Assembly (NCBI GenBank): GCA_964477685.1
Contig: CAYZHK010000001.1
Coordinates: 1-60,090 of the forward strand
Reading direction: 5' to 3'
Length of the DNA: 60,090 nucleotides
From: an uncultured Nitrososphaerota archaeon
GTDB lineage: Archaea > Thermoproteota > Methanomethylicia > Methanomethylicales > Methanomethylicaceae
The position numbers were made by a program, and so were the translations under genes. The first letter of the stretch is position 1. Each line of letters begins with the position of its first letter. Positions 26,653 to 48,652 of the stretch are shown here, piece after piece. The notes under the pieces are model-generated. The model worked only from the letters and a program-made list of their open reading frames with translations, was not told the origin of the DNA and did no database searches.

Positions 26653-29286
26653 ATGGACAAGGCTTCAGAGAAGAGGTCCCCAGTGGGCGCCGCCCTGATT
26701 GCGGTGACCACATTCGTTGTGTTGATACTATTCAGCTATTTTGCGCTGGGGATGGTTGTACTCATTTCGGCGGCCGTCGGGCTGGTGGCCTACTTCAAGC
26801 AGAGGTTCACATCCGCCCTTCTAACTGCCTTCCTGCTCATCCCTGCCATAGCCATACTCCCCCTGGAGGGGAGCGCCTCGCTCATGCCGGTGGTCGTCTT
26901 GGGGCTCTCATTTGCCGTCGTGCTCCTCCTCTCCGCCATTGACTGGTTAGGCGCCCTCCTGGGGCTCTGGCTTGGGCTCATGCTCTACTCCCCTGCCGTC
27001 GTCTTCCTGGCCCTCCCCGCCCTGGCAGTGGTCTCCGCCTTCGGCGGAATAAGGAAGTCCCTCTCTGCAGCCCTTGTCTTCGCCACCTTCGGAGCCATCA
27101 TGATGAATTCCTTGGTCCTCGGCATCCCCGTACCCGACGCCCTCTACTATTACACCGCCTTTTTCCCCAACCTCAACGACATCTCTTCCATCCCCTTTGC
27201 GTCTGCCGCCCTCTTCTACCTCTTCGGATCCGGCTGGCAGACAAGCCTGGGGACAGGCACCTCGGGGCTGGTCCTGAACAGCACCCCCATCTACTTCATA
27301 ATCGTCTCCCTCTCCACTATCCTCCTCTCCTTCTACGTCTGCAGGCTCCTCAGGGCAGTTCTCAACCAGCCATTGTCCCGGCTTGTCGCCTCAATAGTTG
27401 GGGCCTCCCTCGGCGCCTCCCTCTACGGGACGCTTTCCCTCGTGGGCATCTCCGCGGGCGCGGCCTTCCTCTCCTCCTTCTCCTACATCGCACTCGGGCC
27501 ACTCTTCCTCCCCAAGCCCAGGCTCTCAGCTCAGGGCATAGCCCAGATGCTGAGCAAGCCCGCCCTCCTGGAGGTCTCAGGAGGCAGGGCGAACGGCTCG
27601 GTGCTGGTGGAGAAGAACCCCTCCAAGGGATTCAGGAGCATGGACTACTGGGACAAGGCGAAGGGGTTGGACAGCGTCAAGGAGGACCTCTTCAGGTCCG
27701 TCGTCCTGCCCATGCACAAGCGTTCAGAGGCTGAGCGTTTCGGGGTCAAGCCTGTCAAGGGCATCCTCCTGTACGGTCCGCCGGGGACCGGAAAGACAAT
27801 GCTCCTCAGGGGGCTTGCATCGAAGCTGGCCATGACCTATGTCGAGGTCAATCCGGGCACGCTCCTCTCCAAATGGTACGGCGAGAGCGAGCAGAGGATG
27901 AGGGACGTGGTGGAGACGGCCATCGGAGACTCGCCCTCAATTCTGGCCATCGACGAGATCGACAGCATAGGCAAGGAGAGGACCTCCTATGCCCATGACG
28001 ACATCACCCCTAGGGTCCTGAACGTCCTCCTCATGGGCATGGACAGGATCTTCCTGAGCAGTGCCGAAGTCCTCATGGTGGCCACAACCAACAGGCCACA
28101 GATGCTGGACAGGGCCCTGTTGAGGTCCGGCAGGTTTGACAAGATAATATATGTGGGCCCGCCTGACGCGGCAGCGAGGGAGGAAATCTTCAGGCTTTAC
28201 CTGGGGGCAAGGGGGGACGTCGTCTCGGACAGCATCGACTATGCCCGGTTGGCCTCGCTCTCCGAGAGGTTCACCGGGGCCGACATCGAGGCCCTGGTCA
28301 ATTCGGTGATGTCAAGCGCTTTCTACAACAAGGTGCTCGAAAACAAGGAGCAGAAGATTACCCCGGAGGTGCTAGAGGCGGCCATCAGGGCAACGCGCCC
28401 CTCTCTGGACACCTCCATGATTGAGGAGTATGAGAAATTCCGGGTCTCCTACCAGCGCGACAAGAAGGTGGTGAAGGGCTGGGAATCTGGCATCTCCGAC
28501 ATAGGATTCGACGACATAGGCGATCTGGACGAGATCAAGGCCTCGTTGAAGGAGTCTTTCCAGCTGCCGCTGGAGAAGCCAGACCTCCTTAAGCGCTTGG
28601 GCGTCCAACCGGTCAAAGGGATCCTGCTCTATGGTCCGCCTGGCAACGGAAAGACCCTTCTGGCGAAGGCAGTGGCCAACGAGGTCTCCGCCAACTTCTT
28701 CACCCTCAGCGGGGCGGACATGATCAAGAGGGGCTCCTCCCAGGCTGCAACCATGATCAAGGAACTATTCAACCTGGCAAAGGACAATGCCCCTGCAATT
28801 GTCTTCATAGATGAACTGGACCAGCTTGCCCCTGACAGGAGCAGCCCGGTCGGCGTGGACTTCATTCCGGTGACCACCCAGCTGCTTGGGGAGTTGGATG
28901 GCATCAAGGAGCTGAACGGAGTCATGATGCTCGCGGCCACCAACAGGCCTGAGAGCGTGGAGCAGGCCCTTCTGAGGCCTGGAAGGCTGGAGAAGCACCT
29001 CTACGTCCCCGCACCAGACGAGGAGGGAAGGAGGAAGATCTTCGAGGTATGCCTGAGGGGCACCAATTCCAAGGATGTCTCGGTGGAGACGCTGGCAAAG
29101 CTCACGACTGGATTCTCAGGGGCGGAAATCTGCGAGACCGTGAACAACGCAAAGAAGGTTGTCCTTGCAGAGGCGGCGGGTGGTTCGAGCAGGGACTGGC
29201 TCACCATGGACGATTTCAGCCAAGCGTTAGAGAGAAAAAGGAAGGAGACTATCAACCCCAGCCTCATATCCCGCAGCGAGTTCTGA
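26653..29286 (+). CDS. Membrane-anchored tandem AAA+ ATPase (Cdc48/VAT-type D1-D2 with a polytopic N-terminal membrane domain)
   Basis: The first ~290 aa are hydrophobic helices. Two AAA modules follow: GILLYGPPGTGKTML...ILAIDEIDS and GILLYGPPGNGKTLLAKAVA...IVFIDELDQ. Confidence 0.8.
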   Translation: MDKASEKRSPVGAALIAVTTFVVLILFSYFALGMVVLISAAVGLVAYFKQRFTSALLTAFLLIPAIAILPLEGSASLMPVVVLGLSFAVVLLLSAIDWLGALLGLWLGLMLYSPAVVFLALPALAVVSAFGGIRKSLSAALVFATFGAIMMNSLVLGIPVPDALYYYTAFFPNLNDISSIPFASAALFYLFGSGWQTSLGTGTSGLVLNSTPIYFIIVSLSTILLSFYVCRLLRAVLNQPLSRLVASIVGASLGASLYGTLSLVGISAGAAFLSSFSYIALGPLFLPKPRLSAQGIAQMLSKPALLEVSGGRANGSVLVEKNPSKGFRSMDYWDKAKGLDSVKEDLFRSVVLPMHKRSEAERFGVKPVKGILLYGPPGTGKTMLLRGLASKLAMTYVEVNPGTLLSKWYGESEQRMRDVVETAIGDSPSILAIDEIDSIGKERTSYAHDDITPRVLNVLLMGMDRIFLSSAEVLMVATTNRPQMLDRALLRSGRFDKIIYVGPPDAAAREEIFRLYLGARGDVVSDSIDYARLASLSERFTGADIEALVNSVMSSAFYNKVLENKEQKITPEVLEAAIRATRPSLDTSMIEEYEKFRVSYQRDKKVVKGWESGISDIGFDDIGDLDEIKASLKESFQLPLEKPDLLKRLGVQPVKGILLYGPPGNGKTLLAKAVANEVSANFFTLSGADMIKRGSSQAATMIKELFNLAKDNAPAIVFIDELDQLAPDRSSPVGVDFIPVTTQLLGELDGIKELNGVMMLAATNRPESVEQALLRPGRLEKHLYVPAPDEEGRRKIFEVCLRGTNSKDVSVETLAKLTTGFSGAEICETVNNAKKVVLAEAAGGSSRDWLTMDDFSQALERKRKETINPSLISRSEF

Positions 29287-37984: not shown

Positions 37985-38920
37985 ATGAGGCAAACCTGTG
38001 ACGAATGTGGGGTACTCCTGATCCAATCGGAGCAGAGCCTTGTCTGCCCCTCCTGCGGCCTGCTCCACGATTCGACCTGCCAAACCCAGACGCCACTTCC
38101 AGGCTTCAAGCAGAGGCTTGGCAGCCTGATGACCGTGACCAATACCGACCTCTGGCCGGGCGCACTAAGAAATGAGCACACACATGCAAAATACCGTAGG
38201 CTTGGGGATCTGCAGGAATCCATTTACCATGGCTCCTACATCGACATCTTTCGGCTGACTCAAGATCTCCGGAGCATGGCTGAGAGGCTTCACCTCCCCC
38301 CAGAAGTTGTGGATCTCACCTTGAAACAATTCAACGAGATCACATCAAAGGTAAGGAATCCCTACAACAGCCGCACCCTTCTGCTGGCGGTCTGCTTCAC
38401 CAAGGTAACAAGGGAGATGGGCAATCTCGCCCCTGTGAAGATTATCGAGGTTGCGGAGGCATTCGCCTCGCGGGGATACAATTTTTCTCCCCGGCTCCTG
38501 GCAAGAACACTATACTATGCGTCGAACCTGATGCCCATAAAAAAATTCAGGAGTTGTGAAGAATGCGTAGGGAAAGTGCTTCAGCGTCTGGGAGGGGCTC
38601 CCTTCCTGAGGGCAAGGGCAGTGGCCGTTAACCTTGACATCGATGACTACCTCTCCCGTCTGGAAAGACTCTCCGGAGACCTTCTGGAAAGCGTACCCCC
38701 CGTGAAGAGGAGTGGGAGAAACCCCTTCCTGCTTGCCGCCTCATCGGTTTATGTCTCAAATGCTGTTCTATCGAGGGAGAGGGGGATCAACAGTCTGTTC
38801 ACAAAAACAGAATTTTCCAGGGAGGTGGGCATCGCTGAATACACCCTCCGGAGTCATCTCGCAGAAATATTCAACAAAGAGATGGGAAAATGCCTTGTCC
38901 CGCCCTGCCGCTCCCCCTAG
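37985..38920 (+). CDS. Divergent TFIIB/TFB paralogue (Zn ribbon plus two cyclin-like repeats)
   Basis: N-terminal CDECGVLL...LVCPSCGL ribbon. The second repeat shows GRNPFLLAASSVYVSNAV...TKTEFSREVGIAEYTLRSHLAEI, the classical TFB cyclin-fold pattern. Confidence 0.75.
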   Translation: MRQTCDECGVLLIQSEQSLVCPSCGLLHDSTCQTQTPLPGFKQRLGSLMTVTNTDLWPGALRNEHTHAKYRRLGDLQESIYHGSYIDIFRLTQDLRSMAERLHLPPEVVDLTLKQFNEITSKVRNPYNSRTLLLAVCFTKVTREMGNLAPVKIIEVAEAFASRGYNFSPRLLARTLYYASNLMPIKKFRSCEECVGKVLQRLGGAPFLRARAVAVNLDIDDYLSRLERLSGDLLESVPPVKRSGRNPFLLAASSVYVSNAVLSRERGINSLFTKTEFSREVGIAEYTLRSHLAEIFNKEMGKCLVPPCRSP

Positions 38921-38921
38921 G

Positions 38922-39371
38922 CTATGCGGCTATCCCTATCTGGTATTCCCTAATGAGGGACAAATCGTCTGACTCAAGGCTCACGATGAGAACAGCGGAT
39001 ATGAAAGCCCGCTCGCTGCCATTCATGCCCAAAAACCCTGACTGCACGGAGTCCAAAGTCTGGTTCTCCAGGGGCTCCACGCGAATGCCGTCCAGCACCA
39101 ATTGGCACCCCCACAAACTAAGGTATTTCTCCACGTCCGCCTCCCATTCAATTACCATTGGGATGATCTCTTTTGCCGTTGGTTCAGGATCTTCACCTAC
39201 CCATTCATGGAGCCTCATGCAGCAGTCCAGCATGACGTTGTATGAAGCGATTTCCATGGAGCTCAGGCAGGAGATCCGATCCAGCTCGATAGCAGTATTT
39301 GCCACATTGGCCTCGATGGTCAACGCAGTGTGAAGGAGCAAAATAAACATGATTGCCTGCCCTGTGACCAT
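38922..39371 (-). CDS. Pilin-like protein (putative class III signal peptide MVTG/QAIMFILLL)
   Basis: A short N-terminus ends in G and is followed by a hydrophobic helix. It is the last gene of a four-gene overlapping operon beside the T4P ATPase. Confidence 0.5.
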   Translation of the reverse strand: MVTGQAIMFILLLHTALTIEANVANTAIELDRISCLSSMEIASYNVMLDCCMRLHEWVGEDPEPTAKEIIPMVIEWEADVEKYLSLWGCQLVLDGIRVEPLENQTLDSVQSGFLGMNGSERAFISAVLIVSLESDDLSLIREYQIGIAA

Positions 39372-39373
39372 TA

Positions 39374-39709
39374 TTAACCCTTTTTTATTATGTAGAATGT
39401 TCGAATCCCCCCATCACTGCTGATGAAAAAGGTTTGCGATGTCCCATTCTCAGGCGCGACAGTTGAAAAAAACAGACCGCCGACCTCAAAGGAATCCGCT
39501 CCAGGGGGGTGGGAGGTGATGTTCATGCCTGCCCAGCCAGCCATGATTTCCCCCCTCAGGTTTTCGAGGCTGATCTTGTCCATGGCTTCAGCCTTCATTC
39601 CCCCCACCTGGTTGGCCATGACCCCAGCGACTGCATCCAAGAGAATAAGGAGAAATAACGCCCCAATGCCATCCACCAGCGCAACGCTTCCCCTTCCCCT
39701 GCGCCTCAA
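39374..39709 (-). CDS. TadE-like minor pilin candidate
   Basis: MRRRGRG/SVALVDGIGALFLLILL resembles the TadE/TadF N-terminus (G-S-x-x-x-acidic then a hydrophobic helix). The TTG start overlaps the upstream stop (TTGA). Confidence 0.5.
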   Translation of the reverse strand: MRRRGRGSVALVDGIGALFLLILLDAVAGVMANQVGGMKAEAMDKISLENLRGEIMAGWAGMNITSHPPGADSFEVGGLFFSTVAPENGTSQTFFISSDGGIRTFYIIKKG

Positions 39710-39882
39710 GGCGGCACGCTTCCATTTGCAATTCCTGTGGCGTTCACCTGATGCCGCTCCAGCTCTGCCCTGAGCATTTGAGCCTCCTTGAGTGCGTCTC
39801 TAAACGTGTCGGCTACAACCGCGTTAAGGATGATGATCAGAAGGAGAAGTGGGAACAGTACCCATACCTCGACAGAACTCAT
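39706..39882 (-). CDS. 58-aa single-pass membrane protein (not in the ORF track)
   Basis: My translation is MSSVEVWVLFPLLLLIIILNAVVADTFRDALKEAQMLRAELERHQVNATGIANGSVPP*. It has an ATGA overlap with the upstream gene and a TTGA overlap with the downstream gene. Confidence 0.5.
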   Translation of the reverse strand: MSSVEVWVLFPLLLLIIILNAVVADTFRDALKEAQMLRAELERHQVNATGIANGSVPP

Positions 39883-40091
39883 CCAACCCCCTCCAAGCCC
39901 GAGGAACGAGAAGAATTGGTGTCAAATTCTGGTCCAGTAACGCCGCCTGTCTGATTTTGATCAATGTTGATGAACTCAGATGCCTCGGAGTTGATGGCCA
40001 GGGCAGCGCTCATCGCGGAATAGCTCACCATCGAAGCAGAAAAAAGCCAAATGAAGAGAATTATCTCCGCCTCAAGAATCCTGTAGGTCAT
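39879..40091 (-). CDS. 70-aa small protein with an N-terminal hydrophobic helix (pilin-like or membrane)
   Basis: MTYRILEAEIILFIWLFSASMVSYSAMSAALA... It is the first gene of the divergent operon, 26 nt downstream of a palindromic TATA-like element. Confidence 0.5.
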   Translation of the reverse strand: MTYRILEAEIILFIWLFSASMVSYSAMSAALAINSEASEFINIDQNQTGGVTGPEFDTNSSRSSGLEGVG

Positions 40092-40116
40092 TTCTACACC
40101 AATCAGTCTCTGTGTA

Positions 40117-40126
40117 TTTAATTAAA
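40117..40126. promoter_or_regulatory. Palindromic TATA-like element TTTAATTAAA in the divergent intergenic region
   Basis: A perfect 10-nt AT palindrome between the minus-strand start at 40091 and the plus-strand micro-ORF start at 40204. Confidence 0.4.
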
Positions 40127-40203
40127 CGAGCTGACCTCCCCCCTCAACCGCTGAGTCTTTAAGCGCTGCTGACTTGTGGTGTGCTGCATTGTTGTCCCAA
40201 AAA

Positions 40204-40341
40204 ATGGATCACCGTCTTGATTTTGCCATGGCCAATGTCAACAGGCTCTTTGAGCGCGTTGAAAAGATCGAAGAAAGTGTCAATGCCTTGGAGTATGCTC
40301 TCTCTCTTCTTTCCAAGAGGATCGATGAACTTGAAAGGTGA
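40204..40341 (+). CDS. 45-aa coiled-coil micro-ORF preceding the T4P ATPase (not in the ORF track)
   Basis: MDHRLDFAMANVNRLFERVEKIEESVNALEYALSLLSKRIDELER* has clean amphipathic heptads. The alternative frame (the tracked N-terminus of the 620-aa ORF) reads as W/C/P-rich and does not look protein-like. Confidence 0.45.
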   Translation: MDHRLDFAMANVNRLFERVEKIEESVNALEYALSLLSKRIDELER

Positions 40342-42043
40342 ATCGGACGTCCCTTCGTCAGGAATGGCACTGCCCCTAAATTCCATTGCAGATGCCTTTC
40401 CCCCAAACCCGGCAGGTCCAACAATCCTGGAGGGCAATCCTTCCCGCCTCTTTCAGCCGGAGCAGATCCGATATCTTCAGAGGCTGGCTCGGGACCTCAA
40501 GCCATTGATTTTTTCCCTTTCCCGGTCAAGACACCATAGGGTTTCAGCCGACACTCTTCTCGATTCAGATGTCTTTAGCGCCCTGTGGGCAGTCGTCAGA
40601 AATCCCCACTCCGGCATTTCCCGCCTCCATTGTCCGCTCTGCGCTGCCATTGGGCGTTTCAGGATCGAGTATGGTCTTCTTCCCGCATACTCACTCGACA
40701 GGCTGAAATTCATGCTTGAGCCGCAGCCCATTCCCCAAGGCCTGCACTTGCTTGGAGAAGAAATCTACCGGGTCGGCCCATTTGCGATTTTTTTGGGCAC
40801 ATACCGTGGCGAGAAAATCCTGTCAGCCGTTCTCGATGACTTGACCCTTGCCGACCGACAATGCATCTTCGAAACGGGCCTAAAGATACGGGAGGAGGAG
40901 ATGCGCTCAGCCGCATTCACCTCCATTAGGCTCGACGAAATCCTCCTGGAAAGGCAAAAACTGATCGAGGGAATGACGGGGATCAGCAGAAGTCTGGTCT
41001 CCCCTTCCATCTACGCTTCGGTGGGTCTCCTTGGCCTTTACCCGCTGCTAATGGACGACCTTGTGGCTGAATTCTATGTTGACCGCCTCGGATCCTTTGC
41101 CTACCTTGATCACCGCGAACTGGGGCGGTGTCTCTCCTCGGTCTTTGTCACCGATAGCGACATGAGCCGATTGGTTACATTCGCCAGGATGGCATCGGGA
41201 AGAACCATGGACTATGCCACCCCCTCCCTCAGAGCATCCCTCAGAACCCTTGACTTCAGTGCCCGCATTTCTGTGGATGGCCCTCCACTCTCCCTCGAGG
41301 GCATGTCACTCTCATGCCGCAAGTTCTTCCTCTCTCCCTTGACCGTCGAAGACCTTGTTTCAAACGGCACAATCCCCCCTCAGCTAGCCTCCTTTCTATT
41401 GGCCCAGATGCTTGAGCGGCACAACATCACAATATACGGCGAGAGCGGCTCTGGCAAGACCACTCTTGCCGTGGCCCTCGATCTTATCACGCCGACTGCG
41501 TGGAGGAAATTTTCTGTCGAGTCCGACGTTGCGGAGAATGTGTCCCAGTCTCTGATGGGCTACCACCAGGTGAGGCTGCTCTCGGCAGGAACGACACCCG
41601 CGGAGCAGGCCAAGAGAACCCACATACTCAATAGCCTGCTGCACAAATCACCGGATTTCATCTTCTTGGGGGAGGTCCTGTCCCGAGAGGACAGCGTCTC
41701 CCTTTTTCAGATATTGGCGGCCGGCCTCAAATGCATCCACACTGTCCATGCTGAGACGGCGGAGGGATTGCTCAGGCGCTGGGTCTATCAGCACGGCATT
41801 CCGCCCTCCTCCCTCCATAGCCTTGACTTGCTGATCCAGATGGAGAAGCGGACGGTCGCAGAGAGGGTCGAAAGACGGGTGGTGAGGGTCTCTAGGGTTG
41901 AGAAGGACCTCGGGTCTATTGAAATTCCCCGCCTTTCGGACATCTACCGCCTAGGCGGTTCCGCCCTGCTTGGCGCGGAAGCAGGGTCGGCCTGTGCCGC
42001 AATGGGGGGAAGCAGGATCCAGGGGCAATCGGGGGGATCCTAA
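40325..42043 (+). CDS. Type II/IV secretion-family ATPase (TadA/CpaF/ArlI/EpdL-like) of a type IV filament system
   Basis: Walker A IYGESGSGKTTL, PDFIFLGEVLSREDS (GE-x-R/S-x-x-E box), His box CIHTVHAETAEG. Start is at ATG 40325 or 40364 rather than the tracked 40181. Confidence 0.8.
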   Translation: MNLKGESDVPSSGMALPLNSIADAFPPNPAGPTILEGNPSRLFQPEQIRYLQRLARDLKPLIFSLSRSRHHRVSADTLLDSDVFSALWAVVRNPHSGISRLHCPLCAAIGRFRIEYGLLPAYSLDRLKFMLEPQPIPQGLHLLGEEIYRVGPFAIFLGTYRGEKILSAVLDDLTLADRQCIFETGLKIREEEMRSAAFTSIRLDEILLERQKLIEGMTGISRSLVSPSIYASVGLLGLYPLLMDDLVAEFYVDRLGSFAYLDHRELGRCLSSVFVTDSDMSRLVTFARMASGRTMDYATPSLRASLRTLDFSARISVDGPPLSLEGMSLSCRKFFLSPLTVEDLVSNGTIPPQLASFLLAQMLERHNITIYGESGSGKTTLAVALDLITPTAWRKFSVESDVAENVSQSLMGYHQVRLLSAGTTPAEQAKRTHILNSLLHKSPDFIFLGEVLSREDSVSLFQILAAGLKCIHTVHAETAEGLLRRWVYQHGIPPSSLHSLDLLIQMEKRTVAERVERRVVRVSRVEKDLGSIEIPRLSDIYRLGGSALLGAEAGSACAAMGGSRIQGQSGGS

Positions 42044-42083
42044 GATCAGCGGGCCCAGGGAAACAGGTGGGAAGGGCGAGACC

Positions 42084-42566
42084 ATGGATTCCAGGTGGCG
42101 GAATGATTTCATGCTCCTGGACGTCTTCTCCACAGCATTCATATTCACCGGCTCCGCAGAAATGGCCCTCCAGGAGACCGTCCATAGCGGGGCATCCGCC
42201 GAGCCCCTCAAAGTCACGATGACTGGGCTGAGGAACGGCAGCAGTTTCGAGCATGCCCTAGGGGAATCGGGGATCCCAAGGGATCTCTCCGACTGGTTTT
42301 ACATGGTCTGTTCTGGATCTGCCAAAGACTCCCAATTGATGCTCGATTCCTGGAAAGCAGAGGCATCCAAATGCCTGGCCAAGACTGAAGACGCAACCTC
42401 CTTGGTCATCACCTTCTCCTGCCTTCTTCCGGTAGTCTTGGCCTCCCTTCTCCTGATGGTTGGGTACTTGAGCTCCCTTCTGGCCTTCTCCATTTCCTTT
42501 ATGACCATTGTTGGCTACTGGCTGGTGAGCAGATGGATGAGACGGTTGAACCGCCCATTAAACTGA
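42084..42566 (+). CDS. T2SSF-type platform protein, single domain (TadB/EpdJ-like)
   Basis: A soluble helical region is followed by hydrophobic helices (LVITFSCLLPVVLASLLLMVGYL..FSISFMTIVGYWLV). It lies immediately after the ATPase. The Met at 42084 is preferred because 41970 overlaps the ATPase. Confidence 0.55.
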   Translation: MDSRWRNDFMLLDVFSTAFIFTGSAEMALQETVHSGASAEPLKVTMTGLRNGSSFEHALGESGIPRDLSDWFYMVCSGSAKDSQLMLDSWKAEASKCLAKTEDATSLVITFSCLLPVVLASLLLMVGYLSSLLAFSISFMTIVGYWLVSRWMRRLNRPLN

Positions 42567-43339
42567 TTCTGAAGCCCCACCCTGTGTCGCTGGGGCTCTC
42601 CGGACTCTTCTACTTGGCAATATGCCTGCAGGGGTCAATGCAATACGGCGTCCCGATGGCGCTAGCCTACTTCATGCTTCTGAATTTGGCCATAAGGTCA
42701 AAATCACTCACCATAGACTTTGGCACAGAGATCGGCGACTCTTTCCTGGCGTCATTCGCAAATAACTTGGCCTCCCTTGGTCCTGAGGAGGCCTTCTCCA
42801 AGGCGCTCAAACGCTTTTCCTCACCTCCGCTTAGGTGTGCCCTTGCCAAGGTGAGAAATGGAGTCCCCATCGCCAAAGCACTGCTTTCCATTGAGGTCCC
42901 TTCAAAATCTGAAAGTACTCTTCTTACCGCAATCTCCGCAGCCCTCTCCTATGGATCCGATGAGGCATCCAATAGGCTGCACAGGTACATGCTCTATCGC
43001 CAAGAACGGACTAGGCTAATCGCAGAATACAAGGGGAAGATGGCCGTCCTATCCCTCCGCCTGAAGGTTCTCTCCGCAATCTCAGCCGCATCCCTTGCGG
43101 TGATCGCCTTCGCCTCCCCCCTCCTGAGCTTCCTCTCCTCAGCAATTGAAGCCCAGACAAAAACCATCAATGGCTGGCCACTGCCCGCAATCGCCCTCTT
43201 CTCTGTGTCGATTCTCAGCCCACTCCTCTATTCGAAGACAGTGCCAGATACCAGCAGCGGCAGAATCACAGCGGCCTGTGCCATCCTGTACCTGTGCGTT
43301 TTTCTCCTCCTCAGCCTGACGATTGGCTGGCGATTTTAA
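42533..43339 (+). CDS. T2SSF-type platform protein, single domain (TadC/EpdK-like)
   Basis: N-terminal TM pair, central soluble helical domain, C-terminal TM helices. Position and topology match the second platform half. Confidence 0.55.
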   Translation: MDETVEPPIKLILKPHPVSLGLSGLFYLAICLQGSMQYGVPMALAYFMLLNLAIRSKSLTIDFGTEIGDSFLASFANNLASLGPEEAFSKALKRFSSPPLRCALAKVRNGVPIAKALLSIEVPSKSESTLLTAISAALSYGSDEASNRLHRYMLYRQERTRLIAEYKGKMAVLSLRLKVLSAISAASLAVIAFASPLLSFLSSAIEAQTKTINGWPLPAIALFSVSILSPLLYSKTVPDTSSGRITAACAILYLCVFLLLSLTIGWRF

Positions 43340-43366
43340 ATACCCCTGGCTGATGGGTGGGTCAAC

Positions 43367-43582
43367 ATGGCTTCCAAATCGCGGAAAGGTTCGCCGTTGG
43401 TGGAAGAGGGGCTCCTCTTGGGCCTATCCATTGTCACTCTGACCGTCGTCCTGACCATAATCGTGGGCCTTCTCACCGGGGTCCAGAATACATTCAATCT
43501 ATCGATATTCAATGCGGACGGCTTTACGGGCCAACTCCAAACTTCCATTGACCAGATACTGCAATTTTTCAGGATAGGGTAA
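43367..43582 (+). CDS. Flp-like prepilin (class III signal peptide)
   Basis: MASKSRKG/SPLVEEGLLLGLSIVTLTVVLTIIVGLL has a basic leader ending in G, acidic residues at +5/+6 (compare the Flp G-x4-EY motif), then a hydrophobic helix. 71 aa. Confidence 0.65.
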   Translation: MASKSRKGSPLVEEGLLLGLSIVTLTVVLTIIVGLLTGVQNTFNLSIFNADGFTGQLQTSIDQILQFFRIG

Positions 43583-45417
43583 TGTTGCCCATTCTACCCT
43601 ATTCCCTTTTTCTATTACTCCTCGCCTTGTTCATAGGCAGTTACCTCTGGTGGAACCCCCTCCTCTTCCTTCTTTCCATGGGCATTTCCACCCTACCGCT
43701 GGTTTATGCGGCGCTTAGGGGAAATGCCAAGGGCCATGCCAATTTCGATGTCAAGACGATGCTGGATAGACATCCGATGTTGGAGTTCCACGGGAAGAAA
43801 TACTCCGCGCTGGCTGTGAAGATCGAATCACAAAGCCAAGAATCGCACGAAAGGTATGAGAAGGAGATCCGCTACGACCGTCTCCTGCGATTTTCCGAAG
43901 CCCTCAATTCCCTAGGCGTCCCCTCCGCCTATGTGACATTCTCATGCATGAAGCAGGCACCCTTGGGCCTGATGGATCCTGCCGTCACAAACATGTCCTT
44001 CATTGTTGCTTTCCCCCAAGGCAGAAACGAAGCTGAGCTCGCTGAAAAATCAGATGCTATCCTCAGGCAAATGGAGGGCCTTTGCCACCTCGCCCTGCCA
44101 GATTGCCACACAAAGCGGATGGGTGCATCTGAAGCGATGCTGCTGCTAGGAAAACCACTACTCCCAGCCCTGCAGGGGATAATGCCCAACCTCCTCTCAG
44201 GGAAGTCTGAAGAAACCATCTGCCCGATCCCTTCTCCTGCCATTGCAACAGGCCAGGAGCCATCTTACCTCTTCAACACCCCTGCCGATCCTGCGGCGCG
44301 AGAGAATGGGCCCTTTCTTGGCTGGATATTCTCCGGCGGGAACAGGGTGGCCCCCCTCAACCTCTCGCTGGAGGATATGCGGAGGCATACAGCAATTTTC
44401 GGCTGCACTGGCGCTGGCAAGTCCACAACTGCCATCTCGCTAGCCCTGCGCTTAGCCACAAGCGGGATCCCTCTCCTGATCTTGGATTGGCACGACGAGC
44501 ATTCTGAGGTAGTCGAGCGCTCGGGAGGCAAGGTATTTGCTTTGGGCTCTAGGGAGCTAGGGATCACCATAAACCCATTGGCCCTCTTGTCAAACAGGGA
44601 TATGGCAACCAACATCGAGCTGGCGTCCGACACATTTGCGCAGACATTTCAATTCACTCCGCCACAGTCATACATGTTCCGTGAAGCATTGAAATCCTGC
44701 TACAACAGCAAACTGAACCCATCCCTCACCGATATCATAAACGAGCTCAGTTTACTCCCCATCCGATCTAGCTGGGACCATGAGACAAGAATGGCCCTGA
44801 TGAGGCGGCTCAAACATTTCACAGAGGGGAGCTGTGGACTTGCCGTAAATGGCCCCGACTCGCTCCCCCGAGCAGAGCTCTTCCGGGGCATGGTATCCCT
44901 AGATCTGAGCCCCCTCAAGGACGTCAGCTCGAGAGCCATCTTGGCCAACCTTATCCTCAAGGTCATCTACGACCAGGCAAACAGCAGGGGTGAGCAGCCA
45001 GCCCTCAGGCATATCCTCTTCATCGAGGAGGCCCAGAATGTCCTGCCGCCTAGGCGCATGGATGCGCCCCAATCCATTGGCGAGCGCATACTTGCGGAGG
45101 TCCGGAAGTACGGCGAAGGGGTTGTGATCATAAGCCAGTTCCCCTCGGCCGTCTCATTGGATGTCATTAAGAACACCTCTGTCAGAATCATTCATGCCAT
45201 CAGGGCGGGCGATGATGCCAAGGTTCTGGGCGAAGCCACTTCCCTTGACATTGCCCAGAGGGCGTCGCTCAGCGCCCTCTCCCAAGGAGAGGCCATAGTC
45301 AATCTCCCCCTCCGTCCGGCAAACTATTTCGTAAGGGTCGTGCCGGACCCCCTATTGGAAACCCCTGCCTTCAACCGATCAGTTCTCGAAGGCGCCCCTC
45401 GCCCTCCAACCGTGTGA
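43582..45417 (+). CDS. Membrane-anchored DUF87/HerA/VirB4-family P-loop ATPase
   Basis: Two N-terminal TM helices, then HTAIFGCTGAGKSTTAISLA (Walker A), IPLLILDWHDEH, RHILFIEEAQNV (Walker B) and EVRKYGEGVVIISQFPS. The start shares one nt with the pilin stop (TAATG). Confidence 0.75.
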   Translation: MLPILPYSLFLLLLALFIGSYLWWNPLLFLLSMGISTLPLVYAALRGNAKGHANFDVKTMLDRHPMLEFHGKKYSALAVKIESQSQESHERYEKEIRYDRLLRFSEALNSLGVPSAYVTFSCMKQAPLGLMDPAVTNMSFIVAFPQGRNEAELAEKSDAILRQMEGLCHLALPDCHTKRMGASEAMLLLGKPLLPALQGIMPNLLSGKSEETICPIPSPAIATGQEPSYLFNTPADPAARENGPFLGWIFSGGNRVAPLNLSLEDMRRHTAIFGCTGAGKSTTAISLALRLATSGIPLLILDWHDEHSEVVERSGGKVFALGSRELGITINPLALLSNRDMATNIELASDTFAQTFQFTPPQSYMFREALKSCYNSKLNPSLTDIINELSLLPIRSSWDHETRMALMRRLKHFTEGSCGLAVNGPDSLPRAELFRGMVSLDLSPLKDVSSRAILANLILKVIYDQANSRGEQPALRHILFIEEAQNVLPPRRMDAPQSIGERILAEVRKYGEGVVIISQFPSAVSLDVIKNTSVRIIHAIRAGDDAKVLGEATSLDIAQRASLSALSQGEAIVNLPLRPANYFVRVVPDPLLETPAFNRSVLEGAPRPPTV

Positions 45418-45952
45418 CCCAATTCACCGAACCCGCAGGCAACCCTCCCCTGCCCTTGATCGCCCCAAGAACATCCTCTGCAGTCTCCTCAGGAGTCAGC
45501 TCGGAGGTGTCGACCTCCCTGACCGCCTCCTTGCCGAAAGCCTCCACTGCGGCAATTAGGCACGCGTCCAGGAGCTCGGCCTCCACATTTTCTTTGACTT
45601 TCTCGACGGAATAGCCCCTTTTTCCCAACCTCTCCCCCAGTATGAAGGGATTTGACCTGAGCACAACCGCAATCTTCACATATTCCTTTGGAACAAGCTC
45701 GCCAAAGTGCCCCTCGATGACCACAATCCCATCCTTCTCGCCCAAGATTTTGCCCAGTGCCCTCCTCAGAATCCCCTCCTTCACCAGCGTGCTGCCCCTC
45801 GCCGAGTCCTTGGTGGAGAGGGCGCCAGCCTCTGCAGCAACTAGGTTGAGGCTCAATAATTTTGCGCAAAGCCTGGCAGCCACAAGCTCCGCAACGGAAG
45901 ACTTCCCTGTTCCAGGAGACCCAGTTATCACGATCGCCCTCTTTTTTTTCAT
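45371..45952 (-). CDS. Adenylate kinase-like NTPase (AK6/Fap7 family)
   Basis: IVITGSPGTGKSS P-loop and VVLRSNPFILGERLGKRGYSVEKVKENVEAE, typical of Fap7. Confidence 0.75.
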   Translation of the reverse strand: MKKKRAIVITGSPGTGKSSVAELVAARLCAKLLSLNLVAAEAGALSTKDSARGSTLVKEGILRRALGKILGEKDGIVVIEGHFGELVPKEYVKIAVVLRSNPFILGERLGKRGYSVEKVKENVEAELLDACLIAAVEAFGKEAVREVDTSELTPEETAEDVLGAIKGRGGLPAGSVNWVTRLEGEGRLRELIG

Positions 45953-46083: not shown

Positions 46084-47733
46084 TTAGTCGAACTCGCCCG
46101 CTCCGCCTTCGCCAGGCTTCTTGGGCATCCCACCGCCGGCCGCTCCGCCTTTCGCAGAGGCTATAACATCATCGATCCTCAATATCATGGATGCCGCCTC
46201 TGTGGCAGACTTGATGGCCTGCACCTTCACCGCCAGTGGCTCGATGACGCCAGAGTTCTCCATGTTCCCTGTCCTTCCCTGAAGGACGTTGATTCCTGCC
46301 CACTTCTCGCCCTTCTCATGCATGGCTCTGAGCTCAACAAGGATGTCTATTGGGTCAAGTCCTCCGCTCTCGGCAAGTGTCCTCGGAACTGCCTCAAGGC
46401 TGTCAGCAAATGCTTCAATGGCAAGCTGCTCCCTGCCGCCGACGCCGGCTGCATAGTCCCTGATGTTCTTGGCAGCCTCCAGCTCCGGAGCTCCGCCGCC
46501 GGCAACGACCCTGCCATCCTCTATCACGTCCGCGACGACGCAGAGTGCATCATGGAGGGTCCTTTCGGCCTCGTCCACCAGTCTCATGAGCCCCCCTCTT
46601 ATCAGGATGCTCACTGCCTTGGGGCTCTTGCACCCCTCTACGAAGGTCATCTTGTCCTCGCCGTACTTCTCCTCCTTGACAACCTTGGCCTCTCCCAAAT
46701 CGGCAGCTGTCAGGTCATCAAGGTTTGTGACTATCTTGGCCCCAGTCGCCCTCGCAAGCTTCTCCATGTCCGACTTCTTGACGCGCCTTATGCCTACAAT
46801 GGACTCCTTCGCCATATAGTGCTGGGCTATATCATCGACCCCCTTCTGGCAAAAGACCACATTGGCCCCAGACTTCTTCACCTTCTGGACCATGTCCTTA
46901 AGGAGCTTCTCCTCCTCCTCAATGAAGGCCTTCATCTGGGTCGGGTCGCTGATCCGGATCTCCGCATCGAATTCGGTCTTCTCGATCTCGAGTGGGGCAT
47001 CCAGCAGAGCTACCTTTGCATTGTCCACCACTTTCGGCATTGCTGGGTGGACAACTTCCTTATCCACAATCACACCGTAGACCAGCTTGCTGTCGGTAAG
47101 GCTGCCACCCTGCTTCTTGACGATCTGTATGTATTCAATGTCAGCAACATACCCCTCGCCCCTCTTTTCCGAGACCTGCTTGACCGCCTTGACTGCAATG
47201 TCGCCGAAGAAGTCCTGAACTCCGGCGGATGCCTTGCTGTTCATCGCTGTGTAGGCAACTTTCTTCATGACCTTTTCGTCATCGATACTGATTGGCATGG
47301 CTATCTTGGAGAGGACGTCCATGGTCTTCTCTGTGGCTTTCTTGTAACCCTGCACGATCAGCGTGGGGTGAATGTTCTTCTCAACGAGTTCTTCAGCCTT
47401 CTTCAGCAGCTCACCGGCAAGGATTACCGATGTTGTGGTGCCGTCCCCGACTTCCTCGTCCTGGGTCTTTGAAACCTCGACCATCATCTTCGCGGCCGGG
47501 TGCTGTACCTCGATATCGCCAAGGATCGTGGCACCGTCGTTTGTTACCGTCACGTCTCCAAGGGTATCGACAAGCATCTTGTCCATCCCCTTTGGACCCA
47601 ACGTTGTCCTGACTGCCTCGGCAACAGCCCGGGCAGCCATCATGTTGACCCTCTGCGCCTCTTTTCCCTGAGTGCGCTGGGTTCCTTCCTTCAGGATCAA
47701 TACTGGAACTCCGCCAAGTTGTGCGTTAGACAT
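46084..47733 (-). CDS. ths: Thermosome subunit (group II chaperonin)
   Basis: [36 protein letters not shown]. 549 aa. Confidence 0.95.
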
Positions 47734-48193: not shown

Positions 48194-48652
48194 GTGACCA
48201 TATTGGGCAAGGTTCGCATCGGCAAGGTAAAAAGCGTATCAAATGAGCTGGTCCTCAAGTACCCGACGGTCTTCTCGACCGATTTTGAGGTCAACAAGAA
48301 GCTCGTTTATCAATACTCTGACATAAGGAGCAAGCACCTGAACAACAGAGTCGCAGGCTACATAACGCGGCTGCTGGTCTCCCAGAAGAAACGCGAGGAA
48401 GCCCTCAAGCTTGAGGAGGCGGAGATCGCCTCAAAGGAAGCCGAAGCGCAGGCTCCAGCAATGGAAATGGCCACCGAGGAGGTCCCAGCCGCAGCGCCGC
48501 AGGGGGAAACCCCACCTGCCGCCCCTGAAGCGGCCAAGGAGCAGGCGGAGGGCACAAAGGCCCCTGAAGAGGCAGAGGGCGAGGCCAAAGGCAAGGCCGA
48601 ACCTGCCAAAGAGCCAGAAGGGCAGGCTAGCGACCAAGGCAAAACGGGGTAA
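48194..48652 (+). CDS. rps17e: 30S ribosomal protein S17e with a ~85-aa low-complexity C-terminal extension
   Basis: GKVRIGKVKSVSNELVLKYPTVFSTDFEVNKKLV...RSKHLNNRVAGYITRL is the S17e core. The TTG at 48203 would give the usual MGKVR N-terminus. The tail is E/A/K/P-rich. Confidence 0.8.
   Translation: MTILGKVRIGKVKSVSNELVLKYPTVFSTDFEVNKKLVYQYSDIRSKHLNNRVAGYITRLLVSQKKREEALKLEEAEIASKEAEAQAPAMEMATEEVPAAAPQGETPPAAPEAAKEQAEGTKAPEEAEGEAKGKAEPAKEPEGQASDQGKTG

Follow-up and report, generated by a model that had tools for sequence, protein, structure and literature searches.

In Sulfolobales, the import of DNA involves CedD, the second ATPase of the crenarchaeal import system, which is of the HerA clade and is anchored in the membrane by transmembrane (TM) helices. 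DNA damage induces it, and neither S. acidocaldarius nor Sa. islandicus can import DNA without it (PMC11823120, PMC11868833). Upon DNA damage, ups and ced are activated by TFB3. According to the locus tags in the literature, cedD (saci_0667 / SiRe_1715) and tfb3 (Saci_0665 / SiRe_1717) are one gene apart in both species, a proximity on which the papers on CedD do not comment. The HerA-like gene of the SSO0283 family of Sulfolobales is located together with the genes for S17e, a Urm1-like protein and thermosome beta (PMC2948915). Here, we describe a locus of which the core occupies positions 37985-45417 of a 60-kb stretch of archaeal DNA (60,090 nucleotides of contig CAYZHK010000001.1, assembly GCA_964477685.1; the whole stretch is called the window below), and in which the genes for a type IV filament lie between a TFB-like and a CedD-like gene. 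It is a chromosomal, vertically inherited, two-operon locus that is widespread in Thermoproteota. Every part of it is of a known kind, i.e., components of a type IV filament, a CedD-type HerA-clade ATPase, and a TFIIB paralogue. The apparent novelty lies in the constancy with which these parts are combined in a single locus, in Methanomethylicia, Nitrososphaerota-related lineages, Conexivisphaerales and other Thermoproteota alike, and in the relation of this locus to the tfb3-cedD neighborhood. The features of the locus and its nearest downstream neighbor are listed here, with the basis of each description in brackets.

37985..38920, plus strand: divergent TFIIB/TFB paralogue, 311 aa (open reading frame (ORF) map)
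38922..39371, minus strand: pilin-like protein, 149 aa, last gene of the minus operon (ORF map)
39374..39709, minus strand: minor-pilin-like protein, 111 aa (ORF map)
39706..39882, minus strand: 58-aa protein with N-terminal hydrophobic helix (ORF map)
39879..40091, minus strand: 70-aa protein with N-terminal hydrophobic helix, first gene of the minus operon (ORF map)
40092..40203, no strand: divergent intergenic region, 112 bp, with two TATA-like elements (read from the sequence)
40204..40341, plus strand: coiled-coil micro-ORF, 45 aa, first gene of the plus operon (ORF map)
40325..42043, plus strand: T2SSE-family assembly ATPase, 572 aa from the ATG at 40325 (PF00437)
42111..42566, plus strand: platform 1, small membrane protein, 151 aa by the public gene call (ORF map and orthologues)
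42533..43339, plus strand: platform 2, polytopic membrane protein, 268 aa (ORF map, AlphaFold2 (AF2) model and Foldseek)
43367..43582, plus strand: Flp-sized prepilin-like protein, 71 aa (conserved prepilin motif)
43582..45417, plus strand: membrane-anchored HerA-clade P-loop ATPase, CedD-like, 611 aa (DUF87, HerA_C and NCBIfam CedD)
45371..45952, minus strand: AAA_18 (Fap7/adenylate-kinase-6-like) kinase gene (PF13238, E=3.5e-19)

The ORFs and motifs reported in the initial annotation, as well as its TAATG overlap, were all recovered at the positions given there. The TFB-like gene is oriented tail-to-tail with the minus operon at a distance of 1 nt. This operon consists of four tightly packed ORFs (38922-40091), of which two junctions overlap by 4 nt, the 58-aa ORF (39706-39882) sharing 4 nt with its neighbor at either end. 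In the plus operon, the 3' end of the micro-ORF overlaps the start of the T2SSE ATPase gene by 17 nt. At the other end of this operon, the 611-aa gene is translationally coupled to the pilin gene, and in the TAATG at 43580-43584 its ATG and the stop codon of the 71-aa gene have one base in common. Public gene calls in four independent metagenome assemblies with an identical platform 2 gene match this map, and the GC content of the region is unremarkable.

Like CedD of Sulfolobales (SSO0283 family, arCOG00286), the 611-aa protein has an ATPase domain of the HerA type in addition to TM helices and an N-terminal domain, and, as in the Sulfolobales module, a TFIIB-family gene is found near the CedD-type gene. 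Moreover, the S17e, Urm1 and thermosome genes near the HerA-like gene of Sulfolobales also flank the locus in the window, where a thermosome gene (46084-47733), a histone gene, the S17e gene (48194-48652) and a Urm1/ThiS gene are located directly downstream of the 611-aa gene. Because of these common neighbors and the proximity of tfb3 and cedD, the 611-aa gene probably corresponds in position to cedD, and the TFB-like gene probably to tfb3; in this reading, Sulfolobales have no intervening pilus genes at the tfb3-cedD site. In both the TFB3/Ups/Ced response and the locus described here, a type IV pilus and a CedD-type ATPase would serve one process. However, the pilus genes of the window lie between the TFB-like and the CedD-like gene, whereas the Sulfolobales ups genes form a separate operon (saci_1493-1496 versus cedD saci_0667). 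Likewise, cedA and cedB of Sulfolobales have distant locus tags, and none of CedA, CedA1, CedA2 and CedB is encoded in the locus of the window. Other differences from the Sulfolobales module are that the N-terminal domain of the 611-aa protein does not align with the CedD model, that the platform is split into two small proteins, and that the pilin is Flp-sized. TFB3 is a truncated TFB with a zinc ribbon but without the cyclin core. Unlike TFB3, the 311-aa protein contains both cyclin repeats; it was therefore not classified as TFB3-type, and its correspondence to tfb3 is positional only.

A CedD-type ATPase, TedD, is also present within the locus of its presumed filament system in the Ted system of Thermoproteales (PMC9905601, PMC11823120). 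That system, however, comprises the VirB2-like pilin TedC, the VirB6-like channel TedA and the VirB4 protein TedB, none of which is found in the window locus, whose filament genes are of the type IV pilus (T4P) type. According to the Ced and Ted papers, CedD orthologues occur where Ced or Ted is present, and no linkage to pilus genes is mentioned. In its filament genes, the locus is reminiscent of the Epd pili of Methanococcus and the bacterial Tad/Flp pili (Epd-like clade of the type IV filament superfamily; PMC6668835), with which it shares a single T2SSE ATPase, two adjoining genes for small, probable platform proteins, a very short pilin of the G|xxxxE type and several genes for minor pilin-like proteins. 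As in Epd and Tad, a dedicated A24 peptidase is encoded in one orthologous cluster (L032). Unlike those of Epd and Tad, the platform and pilin proteins of the window are not matched by the T2SSF, Flp_Fap or Class_III profiles, and a second ATPase of the TadZ/FlaH type is missing from the locus. Conversely, Epd and Tad loci contain neither a HerA-clade ATPase nor a TFIIB gene.

A linkage to TFIIB was previously noted for 'subclade 4D' of Pyrobaculum and Thermoproteus, which comprises an arCOG05558 ATPase, a protein with four or five TM segments, the TFIIB homologue arCOG05559, and RPB8 (PMC4858521). Both 4D and the window locus link a T2SSE ATPase and one or more small polytopic membrane proteins to a lineage-specific TFIIB homologue in Thermoproteota. 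As far as its description goes, however, 4D contains no pilins or secreted proteins, and no HerA-like ATPase is mentioned; furthermore, with 335-343 aa its ATPase is short, and its TFIIB contains a single cyclin domain. In one of the distant clusters discussed below, a gene for RNA polymerase subunit Rpb8/RpoG is located directly upstream of the TFB-like gene (L031 1513-1881). Since Rpb8 adjoins the TFB-like gene there, 4D may, by comparison of descriptions, be a reduced form of the window-type locus.

Type IV filaments and membrane-located DNA translocases also act together in bacteria, where the genes for pilus and DNA motor usually lie in separate operons. Examples are ComG with ComEC/ComFA and, for transjugation in Thermus, T4P with the HerA-like TdtA (cited in PMC11868833). 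Their common principle is that of a filament acting by retraction or as a piston and, at the membrane, a hexameric P-loop DNA translocase. The likeness to these systems is one of functional analogy only: a ComEC or ComEA homologue is absent from the window locus, in which the motor is a CedD-type protein of the HerA clade. A HerA-clade component is not described in the T4P censuses examined, although one supplementary table places a 'HerA helicase' beside a FlaI-like gene in Cenarchaeum. The initial annotation had left open whether the architecture was already catalogued; no prior description was found in the T4P censuses, the Ced and Ted papers and the full-text literature searched, the coverage of which is incomplete.

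The evidence on the 611-aa protein places it inside the HerA clade, closest to CedD. It matches the Pfam families DUF87 (2.4e-15) and HerA_C (8.7e-8) and contains the motifs FGCTGAGKST, LLILDWHDEH, ILFIEEAQNV and ISQFPS. Among the NCBIfam models, that of CedD (NF053655) scored 173 bits (E=7.9e-51), as against 62 bits for HerA, 24 bits for VirB4 and 18 bits for CedB, and CedD was also the top family for each of seven distant relatives from clusters of the same type (155-254 bits). In an AF2 model with a mean pLDDT of 79, two hydrophobic N-terminal TM helices (residues 4-21 and 26-45) are followed by an alpha/beta domain (about residues 58-200) and the ATPase domain (245-590). This architecture of TM helices, N-terminal domain and HerA/VirB4-like ATPase agrees with that of CedD as described (PMC11868833). 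Foldseek matched the model to Sulfolobus HerA (E=3e-19), Thermococcus HerA and the VirB4 ATPase domain (TMt 0.76), and all solved relatives found, i.e., HerA, VirB4, DndH and TdpA, are DNA translocases or helicases. In a sequence search of the PDB, Sulfolobus HerA was matched (1.7e-12), but neither VirB4 nor TrwB. All 22 sequences of the family that were compared have the same Walker A, Walker B and R508/K509. The two N-terminal TM helices and the DUF87/HerA core of the initial annotation are thus confirmed, and its broad HerA/VirB4 placement is narrowed to CedD-like. This name is used rather than CedD because the score is far under the cutoff of 600 bits and the ATPase domain alone aligns.

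An identity as the repair protein HerA was rejected. The fold and the clade are common to both, but HerA models scored 35-62 bits versus cutoffs of 800-970, the 611-aa protein has two TM helices, and none of nurA, mre11 and rad50 is present in the locus. A C-terminal ATPase region resembling CedD is also found in a large family of ~1000-aa proteins that match the NCBIfam 'serine-rich protein' model; this is a distinct family and is uninformative for the locus. One example (L030 10001-13099) is encoded among three genes for dynamin-like GTPases, a gene for a NYN nuclease and one for a WYL regulator, surroundings that look like a defense-type island.

The initial annotation had raised the possibility of a chance adjacency of the ATPase and T4P genes. 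The gene identities, the operon structure and the conservation of the cluster are, however, matters of observation, and the linkage of the CedD-like and the pilus genes is conserved and not due to chance. The gene set was found in the same order, and in most cases nearly complete, in more than 15 fetched loci: a TFIIB-like gene, three to six small ORFs on the minus strand, and then the genes for T2SSE, two membrane proteins, a pilin of 60-85 aa and the CedD-like ATPase. The whole set is syntenic in the Methanomethylicia loci L001-L010 and is also present in nine much more distant loci (L011, L012, L031, L032, L033, L034, L036, L037 and L038). These are nearly whole except L033, which is cut upstream by a contig end, so that a TFB-like gene is not visible there; in L012, the platform and pilin genes were assigned by reading only. 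The deep lineages that possess the set include Nitrososphaerota and Conexivisphaerales.

Distant relatives of the 611-aa protein (520-630 aa) were obtained by a profile search of 1.84 billion representatives, and five of them (L031, L032, L033, L037 and L038) were looked up together with two distant members of the pilin family (L034 and L036). In all five, the CedD-like gene directly follows a small pilin gene, with the genes for T2SSE and two membrane proteins upstream, and both look-ups that started from the pilin revealed the same arrangement. For the CedD-like proteins, identities of 30-39% were calculated, covering five of the distant loci. With deoxyhypusine synthase, H+-PPase, ABC transporter and S26e, the outer neighbors are different in L011, L034, L036 and L038, yet the cluster is intact. 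Wherever gene starts are unambiguous, the co-directional genes for the pilin and the CedD-like ATPase overlap or are separated by no more than 27 nt. In L013, by contrast, a CedD-like gene and a TFB-like gene encoding cyclin repeats only are found without pilus genes; the TFB-like gene directly precedes the CedD-like gene and overlaps its start by 8 nt.

A further constant neighbor is the gene for the Fap7-like kinase, which in the window is convergent with the CedD-like gene with an overlap of 47 nt (45371-45417). Of the 17 distinct fetched loci with a CedD-like gene, 16 have the kinase gene next to it, 15 of these in convergent orientation; it was seen downstream of the CedD-like gene in L001-L013 other than L008, in L031-L034, and in L036 and L038. 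In L038, it is located downstream but co-directional, and none was called in L037. The adjacency persists where other flanks differ (L011, L012, L013, L034 and L036), and it reflects either very old synteny or an unrecognized functional tie.

The T2SSE-type ATPase of the initial annotation was verified with PF00437 (E=4.4e-13, above the gathering score). It contains the boxes that characterize ATPases of the T4P family, i.e., Walker A (GESGSGKT), Walker B (DFIFLGEV), the Asp box and the His box (HTVHAETA). Among the NCBIfam models, it matched those for FlaI (6e-19), the TadA type (1e-17) and VirB11 (1.2e-15), all far under the cutoffs, and, also below threshold, that for TrbB (8e-12). The closest solved structures are AfGspE, the GspE of Archaeoglobus (2oap; 8e-21), FlaI (1e-18) and CpaF (6e-13), and no VirB11 was found among the PDB sequences at E<=1e-3. 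As AfGspE, FlaI and CpaF were matched and VirB11 was not, the ATPase is of the type IV pilus kind and not of that of type IV secretion systems (T4SS).

The two small membrane proteins encoded downstream are likely platform proteins. Platform 1 has alternative starts at 41970 and 42084, which give it a length of 151-198 aa depending on the start, and consists of a cytoplasmic helical region with two C-terminal TM helices. It lacks an N-terminal segment of ~80 residues with TM helices that is present in its orthologues (217-270 aa; 22-30% identity). Since four independent assemblies give the same call (151-160 aa), this shortness is probably not an assembly error. In platform 2, TM helices at both termini enclose a helical cytoplasmic domain (about residues 69-140). 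In its AF2 model (mean pLDDT 74; 85-91 in the cytoplasmic domain), this domain yielded the sole meaningful Foldseek match in the PDB, i.e., the cytoplasmic domain of GspF/OutF (5nbg_A; prob 0.97, 23% identity, TM-score of 0.53 normalized to the target, but E=0.48), and platform 2 is probably TadB/TadC/GspF-like on the basis of this model. Comparison of the two platform proteins by hhalign gave a weak match (prob 23%, E=9e-4). The platform calls of the initial annotation therefore found a structural echo for platform 2 but failed in sequence profiles: neither protein, nor any of 8+8 orthologues, matched PF00482 (T2SSF), and a profile search with platform 2 in a set of 5.8 billion proteins recovered the close family only, without any member carrying T2SSF.

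The N-terminus of the 71-aa protein, MASKSRKG|SPLVEEGLLLGLSIVTLTVVL, comprises a short basic leader, the sequence KG|SPLVEEGLLLG and a hydrophobic helix. The pattern [GA]|[SVQ][PQ]L[VI]EE[GA] followed by a hydrophobic helix, and preceded by [KR], was seen in each of the 10 lineages aligned. With its acidic residue at +5, it is of the classic prepilin type, and the basic leader, the G/A at -1 and the helix together constitute a class III signal, with predicted cleavage. The family has 802 members, several of which are named 'Flp pilus assembly pilin Flp' in IMG. The conserved motif, these labels and the Peptidase_A24 gene of L032 speak for the Flp-like prepilin of the initial annotation, whereas the Pfam searches proposed there gave no match. 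The 71-aa protein is the most conserved of the cluster: across Methanomethylicia, its identity is 69-78%, versus 40-47% for T2SSE and 46-54% for the CedD-like protein; platform and minor pilin proteins reach 22-39%. Also in comparison with L033, it reaches 50%, against 37-39% for the two ATPases. Such high conservation of the main pilin is the opposite of what is usual for exposed pilins. Because the 71-aa protein is the most conserved of the set, an internal pseudopilus under constraint suits the pattern better than an adhesin at the surface. A member of the small-pilin family is also encoded away from any T2SSE or CedD-like gene (L035 8001-8258; 85 aa, in a Thermoprotei metagenome-assembled genome), where the solitary gene adjoins that for a 542-aa protein without a Pfam match.

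Prepilin-like leaders are present in three of the four proteins of the minus operon, so that the pilin-type signals which the initial annotation had noted for at least two of them are borne out. The 149-aa protein starts with MVTG|QAIMFILLL, i.e., a short leader ending in G and then a hydrophobic helix. Its orthologues in seven loci of the Methanomethylicia type (L001, L003 and L005-L009) are 24-30% identical, and RG|[LV][IM]LT is kept in those of L006-L008. The 111-aa protein has a signal of the class III type, RGRG|SVALVDGIGALFLLILL, which in its orthologues (27-30% identity across loci) reads [KR]G|xxx[LI][IV]D[AG], again followed by a hydrophobic stretch. Weak orthologues of the 58-aa protein show G|Q[AT]E and then a hydrophobic helix. 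The 70-aa protein, for which L001 and L003 have counterparts by position, shows no G/A cleavage motif and is therefore only a doubtful pilin. None of the proteins of the minus operon gave a meaningful match in Pfam or NCBIfam. In L032, the minus operon opens with a Peptidase_A24 gene (PF01478), which ties the cluster to prepilin processing.

As judged from its sequence, the 311-aa protein is a real, strongly diverged TFB paralogue. It shows the architecture of TFIIB/TFB, i.e., an N-terminal CxxC...CxxC zinc ribbon, of which C5, C8, C21 and C24 are invariant, followed by two cyclin-like repeats. Pfam did not detect TFIIB in the single protein and returned weak Zn-ribbon matches only, but a profile of eight orthologues matched human TFIIB over the Zn ribbon and both cyclin repeats (E=4.6e-14) and the Pyrococcus TFB core (1.5e-8). 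When Pfam was applied to these orthologues, Zn_Ribbon_TF was found in 7/8 and TFIIB in 6/8, most matches being weak. Hence, the TFIIB paralogue proposed in the initial annotation could not be upheld from the single protein but was recovered with the profile of orthologues. A TFB-like gene occupies the matching position in L001-L012, L031, L034 and L037. A putative counterpart, assigned by its like size and position, is found in L032, L036 and L038; that of L032 shows 22% local identity to the 311-aa protein over 237 columns. Ribbonless TFB-like proteins with cyclin repeats only are encoded in L013 (8746-9504), L031 (2039-2959) and L032 (2155-3015). A TFB without the ribbon is unable to recruit RNA polymerase in the usual way, and such a protein may therefore be a competitor or a co-factor.

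The divergent intergenic region contains two putative promoter elements, whose function is predicted from the sequence. The perfect palindrome TTTAATTAAA, which is TATA-like, is located at 40117-40126, i.e., 26-35 nt upstream of the start codon of the minus operon, and CTTTAAG is located at 40157-40163, i.e., 41-47 nt upstream of the ATG of the micro-ORF. This placement of the palindrome TTTAATTAAA suggests a leaderless transcript and possibly a bidirectional promoter element. A T(T/A)TAAA(A/G) box could be aligned in the equivalent intergenic region of six related loci. The micro-ORF was also called by the public gene caller. It is 45% identical to its counterpart in L003 and weakly similar to those in L001, L005 and L009, and small or coiled-coil ORFs occupy its position in L031 and L032 as well. 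Its search against Pfam yielded sub-threshold coiled-coil matches only.

The locus is a candidate DNA-uptake apparatus. We give an even chance to the proposal that a DNA translocase is coupled here to a pilus or pseudopilus and that a TFB paralogue is dedicated to this machine; that the two are physically joined, that DNA is what is moved and that the TFB paralogue acts as a regulator are all predictions. The genes found support the composite of a filament machine and a membrane-bound translocase of the HerA/VirB4 type with a TFB paralogue, as put forward in the initial annotation, any transport function being a prediction. Three parts can be envisaged. The first would be a minimal filament machine with a hexameric ATPase of the FlaI/TadA type, two TadB/TadC-like platforms, an Flp-sized major (pseudo)pilin, and three or four minor pilin-like proteins, the prepilin peptidase being encoded elsewhere in the genome. 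The second would be the membrane-anchored hexameric HerA-clade translocase of the CedD type, and the third the divergent TFIIB paralogue, which probably gives the shared divergent promoter region its own regulation. T2SSE and the platforms would assemble a short pilus or pseudopilus of the 71-aa subunit, with the minor pilins, through the envelope, and this filament would touch another cell or capture DNA. The CedD-like hexamer, with 12 TM helices in total, would be docked at the cytoplasmic face of the same complex and would pump the DNA in. The TFB paralogue would direct or modulate transcription from the shared promoter region, perhaps upon DNA damage as TFB3 does. The locus would most likely be a fuller ancestral form of the tfb3/thermosome/cedD neighborhood of Sulfolobales, in which the pilus function (Ups) and the channel function (CedA) are encoded elsewhere. 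Rather doubtful, but worth stating, is the idea that it represents the complete ancestral TFB3/Ups/Ced response, i.e., a self-contained competence machine of Methanomethylicia, relatives of Nitrososphaerota and other Thermoproteota, in which an Flp-like pseudopilus and a CedD-type translocase would make up a single DNA-importing complex, switched on by its own TFIIB paralogue.

Several observations weigh against the coupling of a filament to a DNA translocase. The 611-aa protein does not reach the equivalog cutoff of the CedD model (173 versus 600 bits), and the alignment covers only its ATPase domain (residues 258-586); therefore, the function of CedD cannot be safely transferred to it. Neither platform 1 nor platform 2 gave a Pfam or PDB sequence match in any of the eight members scanned of each, and the match of platform 2 with GspF/OutF is weak by its E value. 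Also the 71-aa protein, of which 8-10 orthologues were scanned singly, matched neither Flp_Fap nor Class_III of Pfam, nor any NCBIfam model or PDB sequence. A CedA/VirB6-like channel, a VirB2-like pilin, a nuclease and a DNA-binding protein are not encoded in the locus. The absence of the zinc ribbon in L013, L031 and L032 argues against a uniform role of the TFB-like proteins as initiation factors. Furthermore, as the Fap7-like kinase is nearly as constant a neighbor, tight synteny need not mean shared function here, and the presence of a CedD-type gene without adjacent pilus genes in Sulfolobales and L013 shows that the CedD and pilus modules are separable.

Other explanations can be considered. 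The locus could encode an ordinary pilus for adhesion or aggregation that does not handle DNA, with the CedD-like ATPase serving retraction, extraction or insertion of pilins, or protein secretion. Candidates for all components of a Tad/Epd-like pilus are present, DNA-handling genes are lacking in the locus, archaeal T4P can retract although archaea have no PilT (PMC11823120), and HerA/FtsK-fold ATPases drive varied translocation tasks (PMC4858521). We nevertheless consider such a pilus unlikely: CedD, the nearest characterized relative, acts in DNA import, the solved relatives found for the 611-aa protein are without exception DNA translocases or helicases, and the main pilin is conserved to a degree (69-78% versus 40-54% for the ATPases) that is atypical for an exposed adhesive pilin. 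Even less probable is that the pilus genes and the CedD-type ATPase are functionally independent and have remained adjacent through slow rearrangement of an old informational block. That the locus is embedded among conserved housekeeping genes, with TGT and Lsm upstream of it and with Fap7, thermosome, histone and S17e on its downstream side, would be in line with such an origin, as would the near-constancy of the Fap7-like gene (15/17 convergent, one co-directional, absent in L037) and the CedD-type genes without pilus genes in L013 and Sulfolobales. However, this explanation is difficult to reconcile with the intactness of the cluster between differing outer flanks in L011, L034, L036 and L038, with the co-directional pilin and CedD-like genes, which overlap or are at most 27 nt apart and in the window share TAATG, and with the five out of five distant CedD-like genes that are preceded by genes for T2SSE, two membrane proteins and a pilin.

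A Ced/Ted-like or conjugative T4SS, in which T2SSE would be VirB11, the 611-aa protein VirB4 or VirD4, and the small proteins VirB2-like, is very unlikely. Sub-threshold matches of the VirB11 and TrbB models to the assembly ATPase (1.2e-15 and 8e-12), the good superposition of the VirB4 ATPase domain on the 611-aa model (TMt 0.76), and the comparison of CedD to VirD4 and VirB4 in the literature might point in this direction. However, AfGspE, FlaI and CpaF rather than any VirB11 structure (E<=1e-3) were matched by the assembly ATPase, and the 611-aa protein scored only 24 bits versus 643 with VirB4 (TIGR00929), 34 versus 567 with TraC and 18 versus 700 with CedB, leaving only the ATPase fold in common. 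The ORFs of the locus include no VirB6/CedA-like channel with 6 or 7 TM helices, no relaxase, integrase or coupling protein, and no plasmid context; instead of the hairpin of VirB2, the small proteins show a single N-terminal helix with a prepilin motif, an A24 prepilin peptidase is encoded in L032, and the chromosomal position is conserved. Hence, membership in VirB4/T4SS was rejected. Finally, weak matches of the PADLOC models HerA and mad8 (58-68 bits), matches of the P-loop region to a PHROG without assigned function and to a terminase PHROG, and the ~1000-aa relatives among dynamin-like, NYN and WYL genes could be taken as signs of a HerA-based anti-phage defense or of the remnant of a virus or mobile element. 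This we regard as extremely improbable: these matches are far weaker than that to CedD (173 bits), SIR2, DUF4297, a nuclease or another effector partner is not found in the locus, nor is an integrase or capsid gene, the GC content is inconspicuous, and most loci examined have one conserved chromosomal position among core genes.

Pilus-dependent uptake and exchange of DNA occur in archaea. Outside the Ced system of Sulfolobales and the Ted system of Thermoproteales, we know of no motor that moves DNA across the archaeal membrane. A CedD-type translocase and a minimal pilus machine in one operon across deep lineages form a concrete candidate for an archaeal competence apparatus. If the rather doubtful idea of a complete ancestral competence machine is correct, the DNA motor still missing from pilus-dependent uptake in archaea would thereby be found, and a dedicated paralogue of a general transcription factor would have been tied to the machine since before the classes that carry it diverged. 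The locus also suggests an origin for components that are scattered in Sulfolobus, i.e., tfb3, cedD and perhaps the pilus, and it could account for 'subclade 4D', the puzzling T4P-like system of 2016 in which a TFIIB gene had been noted. That a diverged TFIIB paralogue is regularly paired with a membrane machine is of relevance to dedicated regulation by paralogues of general factors in archaea. Methanogenic Thermoproteota have recently been brought into culture, and such lineages carry the cluster; Ca. Methanosuratincola petrocarbonis LWZ-6 (CP130488.1) is one of the genomes with it.

The close relatives of the 611-aa protein (46-54% identity) are found in Methanosuratincola, Methanomethylicaceae and Verstraetearchaeota. 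As these nearest relatives belong to Methanomethylicia/Verstraetearchaeota, the source organism is a member of the Thermoproteota and not, as the initial annotation had guessed, of the Thermoplasmatota. In agreement with that annotation, an A24 prepilin peptidase, an integrase and a capsid gene are absent from the 60-kb window; the peptidase was sought by phmmer with the L032 peptidase, by a scan for the GxGD motif and with Pfam. Other polytopic proteins encoded in the window are, according to Pfam, PrsW, 12TM_1 and a TM-anchored double-AAA protein. The latter (26653-29286, plus strand) is an 877-aa protein of unusual membrane-anchored architecture, in which about nine N-terminal TM segments, by a crude count of hydrophobicity, are followed by two AAA domains of the Cdc48/FtsH type. 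Unrelated to the locus is a fragment of a surface protein with Ig-like / InlB B-repeats near the start of the contig (97-693, plus strand), the ORF of which may extend further upstream.

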